In this document: positions 3,001-6,000 of the stretch, in pieces
How positions within the stretch are numbered: position 1 is the stretch's first letter
Layout: every line of letters begins with the position of its first letter
Source: a virus
Lineage: Duplodnaviria > Heunggongvirae > Uroviricota > Caudoviricetes
IMG/VR virus record: IMGVR_UViG_2537561992_000026
Coordinates: 1-6,056 of that record
Strand: one strand, 5' to 3'
Length of the DNA stretch: 6,056 bases
Program-made: the position numbers

Positions 3001-6000
3001 TCTGCAAACCAGATTGAAGGCGACCTGGTGAAGACGGTGGGGAAAGCCTTTCCCCGGAATAACAGTTATGCCAGCGGGACGGTAACCGTCACAGTTTACG
3101 ATGACCAGGGCTTCGACCGGCAGATTATCATTCCCCCGGTGCTGTTTCGCGGGACGAAACACCAGAATTTCAACAGCCCGAATCAGCAGTCGTACTGGTA
3201 TTCCACCTGTAAGCTGCAGGTGCTGAAGAACGGGGTTGAGATTTTCCATGAACCGGCAACGGATGTCAGCCGGGTGTTCTCATCGGTGATAGATATGCCG
3301 GCAGGGCGGGGTCATGTCACCCTGACGTTTAATGTGTCGTCGGCCGGTGCGAACAACTGGACGCCGACAACGTACATCAGTGATTTACTGGTTGTGGTCA
3401 TGAAAAAATCCAACGGCAGGGATCAGTATCAGCTGACGGTTTATTAACCCGGACGGGCACCTCAGGAGGTGCCTTTTTATGACTGAAAACAAAGAGGTAA
3501 TCATGCGGCATTTATACGCAACGATATTATTGTTTACTACCCTGCTGGCAGGAATTGCCTTTCCTGCACAGGCTGAAAGCGGACACGGTGCATTTTCCGT
3601 GGGATATGCTCAGGTTCACCCGGGCGGCGTACCGGCATTGTCCGGTACCGGTGCGCGTGCAGGTGATTTAAAAGGGATTAATGTGAAATACCGTTATGAG
3701 TTCACGGATCACCTGGGCGGCATTGTCGCGCTGAGTTATGCATCGGTGAAGAAAAGTGACACGATGAAGACGGGTGAAAATACCTTCCATTATGAAAGCC
3801 TGCGCGGTCGTTATGTCAGTCTGATGGCCGGCCCTGTCTGGCAGCTCAGTGAGCGGGTCAGTCTCTATGGCATGGCCGGGATGGCGTACACCCGCTGGTC
3901 TGACAGTGTTCAGGATTACCGGCGTGATGAAGTGAAACCGGGGTATGTGAAGGAGACCACCACCGCCAGTGATGGCCATACTGCGCGTCATCTGTCGCCG
4001 GCCTGGAATGCCGGGATTCAGTTCAGTCCCGTAGAGACGGTGGTTATTGACCTTGCTTATGAAGGCTCCGCCAGTGGCGACTGGCGCACTGACGGCTTCA
4101 TCGTGGGGATCGGCCATAAATTCTGATTAGCCAGGTAACACAGTGTTATGACAGCCCGCCGGTTCAGGCGGGCTTTTTTGTGGGGTGAATATGGCAGTAA
4201 AGATTTCAGGTGTACTGAAAGACGGCACAGGAAAACCGGTAGAGAACTGCACCATTCAACTGAAAGCCAGACGGACCAGCAGCACGGTGGTGGTGAACAC
4301 GGTGGCCTCTGAAAATCCGGATGAAGCCGGTCGTTACAGCATGGACGTTGAGTACGGTCAGTACAGCGTCATTCTGTTGGTGGAAGGATTCCCGCCGTCA
4401 CATGCCGGGACCATCACCGTGTATGAAGATTCTCAACCGGGGACGCTGAATGATTTTCTCGGTGCCATGTCGGAGGATGACGTCCGGCCGGAGGCACTGC
4501 GCCGTTTTGAACTGATGGTGGAAGAAGCGGCGCGTCACGCTGAGGAGGCGAAGAAGAATGCCGGAGAGGCGGAGACGTCAGCGAGGAATGCCGGCATATC
4601 AGCCAGTCAGGCAGAAGAGAGCGCTGCAAATGCTGACACTTCAGCAGGGGAGGCATCGGAGTCAGCCCGGCAGGCGGCAGAAAGTGCAGCCTCAGCAAAG
4701 CAGTCAGAGGATGCGTCCTCGTCCTCGGCTTCTGCGGCCGCTCAAAAAGCCAGTGAGTCATCACAAAGTGCAGCAGAAGCTGAATTGTCAAGAAAGACGG
4801 CAGAAAGTGCAGCCGGTAATGCAGCCAGGGATGCAACGACCGCAACAGAAAAAGCCCGGGAGTCAGCAGAAAGCGCACAGTCAGCGGAACAAAGCTGGAT
4901 AGCGGCGGAAGAAGCCGTAAACCGAATCCCCACAGTGGTGGGGCCACCCGGGCCAAAGGGAGAACCGGGGCCCGCGGGTCCTCAGGGGCCGAAGGGAGAT
5001 AAAGGAGAGCGTGGCGACACCGGTCCTGTCGGGGCAACCGGTGAACGGGGACCGGCAGGTGATGCTGGTCCGGCAGGCCCGCAGGGGCCGAAAGGCGACA
5101 GGGGAGAGCGGGGTAGAGACCGGTCTGACGGGAAATGCAGGTCCACAGGGTCCAGAGGGAGATACCGGTGCGGCAGGCCCGGCAGGCCCGGCAGGCCCAC
5201 AGGGACCGAAAGGAGAAACAGGTGCGGCTGGCCCGGTGGGGGCAACCGGACCTCAGGGACCGAAGGGCGACCCGGGGGAGACACAAATCCGTTTTCGTCT
5301 GGGGCCGGCGAGCATTATTGAGACAAACAGCAATGGCTGGTTCCCGGGTACAGATGGTGCGCTCATCACCGGACTGACCTTTCTTGACCCCAAAGATGCC
5401 ACACAGGTTCAGGGGCTGTTTCAGCATTTGCAGGTCAGGTTTGGTGACGGGCCGTGGCAGGATGTTAAGGGGCTGGATGAAGTGGGCAGTGATACAGGCA
5501 GAACAGGAGAATGACATGAACATACTAAAAAAACTTATAGCAGCGTCTGTGCGGTTGCGGAAAGCATGATGGCCGTGAACACGGGCAGTCGCTTACAGTA
5601 CAACTGCGACTGGGACCGGCAGACATTCTGGAGTCCGATGAGAGTGGCATTATCCCGGAGCAGGACAGGGTAATCACGCAGGTGGTGATACTGGATGCGG
5701 ATAAAAAGCAGATACAGTGCGTGGTAAGACCGCTGAGGTAGCCTGAGTTTAACGGACACTCCTTCCTGAAATAGAATGGCATCAGAAGGAGCTAATAATG
5801 AGCAGAAAAACCCAACGTTACTCTAAAGAGTTCAAAGCCGAAGCTGTCAGAACGGTTCTTGAAAATCAACTTTCGATCAGTGAAGGCGCTTCCCGATTAT
5901 CTCTTCCTGAAGGCACTTTAGGACAATGGGTTACCGCCGCCAGAAAAGGGCTCGGTACTCCTGGTTCCCGCACGGTGGCTGAACTGGAATCTGAAATTCT

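Follow-up and report, generated by a model that had tools for sequence, protein, structure and literature searches.

Remnant of a stand-alone tail-fibre C-terminal domain gene, cut by IS600, in a lambdoid prophage contig of Escherichia coli EPECa14

The window is a complete 6056-bp contig, ADUN01000183.1, from the E. coli EPECa14 draft assembly. Its positions 5516-5735 are very probably an inactivated copy of a PfC (Phage_fiber_C) gene, which closes the lambdoid late (tail) operon. The copy retains codons 1-73 of an 89-codon stand-alone gene and carries two lesions, a single inserted base at 5539 and the left end of an IS600 element. The first-pass annotation had suggested a frameshifted or truncated stub of a gene translationally coupled to the upstream fibre gene, and both the frameshift and the truncation were found. 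The remnant is a pseudogene fragment of a known, annotated gene family and represents ordinary prophage decay; it belongs to the stand-alone PfC family by descent and not as a functional member. Its appropriate annotation is a PfC-domain pseudogene disrupted by IS600, rather than spacer or a set of new small ORFs.

Sequence features and identity of the remnant

The features of the region and its flanks are as follows.

4191-5514, plus strand: collagen-like tail-fibre gene of the EPclA type (PfN, coiled coil, collagen, PfC), with its own PfC at ~5287-5478
5505-5509, plus strand: Shine-Dalgarno (SD) sequence AGGAG, within the 3' end of the fibre gene, 6 nt before the ATG
5516-5569, plus strand: 17-codon ORF, product MNILKKLIAASVRLRKA followed by a stop
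5516-5735, plus strand: pseudogene, codons 1-73 of the 89-codon stand-alone PfC gene
5539, plus strand: single extra A that turns CTTATGCAG into CTTATAGCAG, a +1 shift that creates TAG at 5538-5540
5541-5738, plus strand: start-less open frame, QRLCGCGK...VVRPL, to which the IS end adds R and a stop (TAG 5739-5741)
5566-5673, plus strand: 35-codon ORF, MMAVNTG...SRTG, in the wrong frame and without homology support
5734-6056, plus strand: left end of IS600 (IS3 family), beginning TGAGGTAGCC; RefSeq 'IS3-like element IS600 family transposase'

The upstream gene had been called stf. It is indeed a tail-fibre gene, but of the collagen-like EPclA type, and it is itself frameshifted in the window. 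The EPclA architecture comprises PfN, coiled coil, collagen and PfC (Ghosh et al. 2012, PMC3368898), and the intact 440-aa fibre homologue WP_000279008.1 matches PF08400, PF01391 and PF06820. The fibre ORF ends in GAA TGA, with the stop at 5512-5514. An AGGAGA motif, its AGGAG core spaced by 6 nt, precedes the next ATG, as the first-pass annotation had described, except that its coordinates (5504-5509) were one base off; read directly, the motif occupies 5505-5510. The same annotation had the ATG overlapping the fibre stop region, whereas the ATG at 5516-5518 begins one base past the TGA.

Three short frames had been reported between the fibre gene and the IS, and all three are present as described: the 17-codon ORF from ATG 5516 with its stop at 5567-5569, the 35-codon ORF from ATG 5566 in a different frame, and a third frame without a start that runs from 5541 to the stop at 5739-5741 inside the IS end. 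Only codons 1-7 (MNILKKL) of the 17-codon ORF are native, and the remainder is an out-of-frame by-product of the inserted A. The 35-codon ORF was judged spurious. The third frame is preceded by the TAG at 5538-5540 that the inserted A makes, and its only start-like codons are GTG at 5682, 5685 and 5721, none of them usable. Open runs of at least 66 codons occurred in 11% of shuffles of the same 220 bases, so that the openness of this frame is not significant in itself, and the case for a real gene at 5516-5735 rests on homology.

This homology was found at both the protein and the DNA level. The frame at 5541-5738 matches Pfam PF06820 with an E value of 3.7e-24 and 85.3 bits (gathering cutoff 25 bits), over profile positions 1-48 of 64. 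Matches to bases 5400-5735 reach 99.4% identity and come from 296 phage records and from 697 of the 5426 complete E. coli genomes, where the median copy number is 10; the copies examined in complete genomes total 6595. Alignment with the gene pair of E. coli O26:H11 11368 yields 99.4% DNA identity over 336 bases, and the differences in this pairwise alignment are one gap, corresponding to the A at 5539, and one synonymous C/T mismatch. In the 11368 annotation this stretch holds the 3' end of a gene whose 440-aa product is named 'prophage tail fiber N-terminal domain-containing protein'; after one intervening base comes a 270-bp gene, and its 89-aa product is the 'phage tail fiber C-terminal domain-containing protein' WP_001023435.1. 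The similarity stops at 5733-5735, where the window goes on with TGAGGTAGCC; bases 5734-5735 (TG) of the pseudogene are common to the IS600 end.

The same gene is L0122 of phage 933W, annotated as a 'hypothetical protein', and it follows the fibre gene as 'tail fiber protein' in VT2-Sakai and many Stx1/Stx2 phages. The intact 89-aa homologue matches PF06820 with an E value of 3e-35 and 120.8 bits, and PHROG 576 over its full length. The window copy shares with WP_001023435.1, 933W L0122 and PHROG 576 the locus, the SD-ATG junction and, after removal of one base, 73 of 73 codons. It differs from the 933W L0122 family in being frameshifted at codon 8 and in lacking codons 74-89 and the terminator.

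The inserted base and the IS600 insertion

The A at 5539 shifts the reading frame past codon 7. The 17-codon ORF results from this shift, which leaves the PfC-coding frame stranded without a start. When base 5539 is deleted in silico, all of the 73 retained codons equal those of the intact protein, and the open but start-less frame of the first-pass annotation is the one in which the gene is really read past the +1 insertion. The window copy has the SD and the start of a stand-alone PfC gene, an 89-codon ORF behind AGGAG whose ATG lies one base after the fibre stop, but its ORF ends after 17 codons and IS600 follows. The +A allele is absent from the 5426 complete E. coli genomes, from the IMG/VR contigs and from the GTDB representatives. 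The identity of 73/73 codons after removal of the A indicates either that the damage is recent or that the A is an error of the draft assembly.

The nearest complete genome, that of strain 2009C_3689, is 98.5% identical to the window and differs from it by 88 mismatches and, over 5.7 kb, by six small indels. The indels of the window relative to this genome are as follows.

836, within gpJ: -2 bp
3412, within gpJ: +A
two intergenic indels
5114, within the fibre gene: +T
5539, within the small gene: +A

In the sequence as it stands, all three genes (gpJ, fibre and small) are disrupted. The gpJ gene (window 27-3447) is split by the 2-bp deletion near 836 and the A at 3412. The extra T at 5114 frameshifts the fibre gene and the resulting ORF ends at 5321, so that translational coupling to the ATG at 5516 would be lost as well. 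If the draft sequence is accurate, the gpJ and fibre frameshifts together with the remnant leave the tail module of this prophage defective, although some of the splits in gpJ and the fibre gene may be draft-assembly errors. A 369-aa antisense ORF at 4414-5523 on the minus strand, over the coiled-coil/collagen region, is recorded as a called gene. It gave no Pfam match; almost certainly the call is spurious and arose from the frameshift in the real fibre gene.

Sequencing error at 5539 is the sole live rival to the account given above. According to this alternative, the PfC remnant is cut by IS600 but the extra A stems from the draft assembly and not from a mutation, which is quite possible, if not the explanation we favour. 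The gene would then remain in frame to codon 73 and end as ...RPL-R-stop within IS600, giving a 74-aa, C-terminally truncated protein without the conserved C-terminal motif. The source is a draft contig, the region is multi-copy (~10 copies per genome in related strains), and four of the six small indels in 5.7 kb relative to the nearest complete genome are homopolymer-length changes, which together make a draft-sequence error a real possibility for single-base lesions. Moreover, the +A allele occurs in none of the 6595 complete-genome copies and in none from IMG/VR, the A is situated 8 nt downstream of an A7 run, and the remnant is otherwise undamaged, with every retained codon matching once the base is corrected. 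Against an error, the insertion lies outside any homopolymer, in a T-A-G context, and real EHEC/EPEC prophages are often frameshifted in the fibre region, as exemplified by the 'defective' EPclA* entries in Sakai and EDL933 (PMC3368898).

The second lesion is the IS600 insertion, present under either explanation of the extra A. Three independent IS600 copies share sequence only from TGAGGTAGCC onward. The copies all begin with this sequence, which corresponds to window position 5734, and the IS boundary of the first-pass annotation, with the spacer ending at 5733, is thus correct. The orfA ATG lies at 5798, the called gene at 5798-6056 contains an HTH_Tnp_1 domain, and the contig ends 323 bases into the element. 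Both the terminal sequence and orfA are identical to those of annotated IS600 copies.

IS600 is inserted at codon 73/74, with loss of codons 74-89 (QILRADGTWENIGGMK) and of the operon terminator. Alignment of stand-alone and fibre-borne PfC sequences shows L73, Q74, D79, G80 and W82 to be invariant; Q74, D79, G80 and W82 are lost to IS600 and L73 is at the edge of the truncation. The window copy therefore lacks a complete PF06820 domain, which extends over 64 positions and includes a C-terminal LQ...DG.W motif.

The exact IS600 junction was absent from the 5426 complete E. coli genomes, the IMG/VR contigs and the GTDB representatives. The breakpoint coincides exactly with the canonical IS terminus, and an assembly artefact is unlikely at this junction. 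In the closest relatives IS600 is located ~330 bp further downstream, in nleG and in the same orientation (2009C_3689, L003 8570-9830), and the IS600 copies at EHEC/EPEC prophage cargo borders have a left terminus and orfA identical to those of the window. The arrangement seen here could be a fresh IS600 insertion or an IS-mediated adjacent deletion. With a simple insertion, the right flank would read CTG and then CAAATTCTGCGTGCTGACGGG..., that is, a 3-bp duplication followed by the rest of the gene.

FORC 064 was considered as a match to the junction and rejected, the resemblance being an 11-nt coincidence upstream of another IS600 copy. The 11-mer AGCAGATACAG (window 5707-5735 region) is found ~25 nt upstream of the IS600 left end in FORC 064 too, in an unrelated context, an IS66 tnpB remnant (L085 2501-2530), and is missing at two other IS600 junctions. 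Its recurrence could be due to chance or to an IS600 target preference. Other insertion sequences have also reached this locus. In phage 06-3462 (L086 2501-4083) a simple insertion of IS1203 interrupts the same gene near codon 52, and an IS66-family transposase ORF ends ~10 nt before the ATG of the small gene in another copy (L066, about 2490).

The inactivation can be described as follows. In intact prophages, the small gene begins one base past the fibre stop and has its SD inside the fibre gene, and a strong terminator lies 13 nt after its stop. In the window, a ribosome starting at 5516 would stop after 17 codons, leaving the PfC frame without a start, and IS600 at codon 73/74 takes away the last 16 codons, which hold the most conserved residues, together with the terminator. 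The frameshift in the upstream fibre gene would also remove translational coupling. We infer that no functional product is to be expected; the short ORFs are by-products.

Conservation of the intact gene and alternative readings

In the 697 complete E. coli genomes and 296 phage records, the gene lies directly after a collagen-like fibre gene and has the same SD-ATG junction. Among 80 related IMG/VR loci, 80 of 81 copies contain the intact 89-codon ORF, and the 28-nt junction GATACAGGCAGAACAGGAGAATGACATG is identical in 78 of the loci. The first-pass annotation had proposed looking for a single long ORF in intact homologues from the equivalent of the ATG at 5516, and this is what they contain, with 89 codons from exactly that start. 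Variable sites in the same 80 loci number 9, 11 and 22 by codon position. The dN/dS ratio is 0.31 for codons 1-27 and 0.085 for the PfC part, with an overall value of 0.13. The intact ORFs, the conserved junction, the codon-position bias and the overall dN/dS show that this is a protein-coding gene on which purifying selection acts. In 79/80 loci the gene upstream has the same PfC tail at its end, the exception being an IS66-family transposase insertion, and the window copy likewise lies directly downstream of a PfC-terminated collagen-like fibre gene.

A GC-rich, conserved terminator hairpin with a U-run occurs 13 nt after the stop of the intact gene (-22.7 kcal/mol, z -4.3; L001 3399-3432) and has no counterpart in the window. 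A simple terminator scan misses this hairpin, whose stem absorbs the T-run. Past the terminator the related loci split into more than 30 sequence types, and annotated genomes have nleG, DUF1076 and other type-III effector genes downstream of it. The divergence immediately after the terminator shows where the tail operon gives way to the effector cargo, and the small gene, next to that border, closes the conserved part of the late operon. The PfC family is narrow, with 94 representative clusters among 1.84 billion proteins. The named protein matches come from E. coli, E. albertii and Citrobacter rodentium, and the small gene is confined to prophages of Escherichia and C. rodentium.

Three further readings of the region were weighed. 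Plain non-coding spacer between the fibre gene and the IS would agree with a longest ORF with a start of 35 codons, with gene callers that called nothing, and with the ease with which frames this long arise in shuffled sequence (11%). It was also the alternative named in the first-pass annotation for the case that related prophages contained no homologous ORF; such an ORF was found in hundreds of genomes. The spacer reading is refuted by the strong protein-level homology of one frame (the PF06820 match) and by a nearly identical, annotated ORF that is widely conserved and evolves under purifying selection; it has next to no probability. In lambda, tfa follows stf in a coupled arrangement, and a remnant of a lambda-type tail-fibre assembly gene would have just the position and coupling seen here. 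However, Pfam searches with the intact protein (E up to 0.01) detected no tail-fibre-assembly family and returned only PF06820, NCBIfam gave no match, and PHROG gave only 'tail fiber protein' families, in line with the earlier remark that nothing here resembles lambda Tfa. The stand-alone protein shares 37% identity with the adjacent fibre's PfC (E 1e-11), a member of the same family PF06820. A tfa remnant is thus very improbable, and the tfa or moron gene envisaged in the first-pass annotation is instead a stand-alone PfC paralogue of the fibre's C-terminal domain.

The third reading takes the 17-aa or the 35-aa ORF as functional, or the region as a regulatory RNA. A good SD precedes the 17-codon ORF, but 10 of its 17 codons are owed to the private one-base insertion and the 35-codon frame is not the conserved one. 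A search for the exact 17- and 35-codon ORFs in other genomes found none. A regulatory RNA is opposed by the lack of an Rfam match and by a fold energy that does not differ from shuffles (z -0.08). These possibilities have hardly any probability, and the inactivated PfC gene remains the preferred reading. No PADLOC match to a defence system was obtained.

A prfB-like programmed +1 frameshift at GAA-TGA-C, fusing the fibre and the small ORF, was considered in view of the SD close by on the upstream side and of the +1 frame of the small ORF. It is unsupported: the P-site codon falls within the SD, not 3 nt beyond it, and re-pairing from GAA to AAU is poor; nor is such a shift needed, as a normal SD-ATG with 6-nt spacing explains the arrangement.

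The first 27 codons of the small gene seem indel-prone and less constrained. The common allele P0049 (73 aa, 762 member sequences) is called from MMTVNTGE..., sharing its ATGATG with the ORF at 5566 before it runs into the PfC frame, which implies a different N-terminal frameshift in many O157-type copies. The idea that these 27 codons are frameshifted collagen repeats was discarded, since the Gly spacing (2, 4, 4) does not fit.

Several sequences join the PfC of the small gene to other partners. In contig JAYDZQ010000147.1 (L087 4-291), collagen repeats are fused in frame to this PfC at ...GERGPADILESDENG..., in an ORF that runs off the contig end. The fusion looks like a deletion through the 11-nt identity GGGACCGGCAG by which the fibre tip was swapped for the downstream paralogue. 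The rare chimeric proteins P0220, P0067, P0087 and P0078 join the PfC of the small gene to the PfC half of the fibre, the gpJ C-terminus, Lom or unrelated sequence, and several of the junctions lie near ...ADILESDENG. These chimeras point to frequent illegitimate recombination around the small gene.

Likeness to fibre proteins and putative role

The stand-alone gene differs from EPclA and EPclB in lacking the collagen and PfN regions, in place of which it encodes a 27-residue N-terminal segment, MNILKKLMQRLCGCGKHD... Experiments identified the PfC of EPclA/EPclB as a trimerisation module from which the collagen helix is nucleated during refolding (PMC3368898), and the stand-alone PfC gene is absent from the discussion in that paper. 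Because PfC is such a module, the intact protein is probably a trimeric partner or an assembly factor of the fibre tip, as judged from the present comparisons.

The stand-alone gene resembles that of lambda Tfa in its position immediately after the side-tail-fibre gene and in its tight coupling, and differs in having no sequence-family match to it. It is conceivable, though rather unlikely, that the intact gene is a non-homologous counterpart of Tfa, acting as a free PfC trimer or as a subunit for capping or templating the tip of the collagen-like fibre or for exchange with it, and/or that it is a spare tip cassette. For the latter, a short deletion could fuse the PfC in frame to the collagen stalk. 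An AlphaFold2 model of the intact protein, built from a 12-sequence alignment, was poor (pLDDT 55), and a PDB sequence search with this protein returned nothing meaningful. Literature searches on L0122 and on exchangeable effector loci found nothing useful. The intact 89-aa gene occurs ~10 times per genome in EHEC/EPEC strains and is present in most Stx phages.
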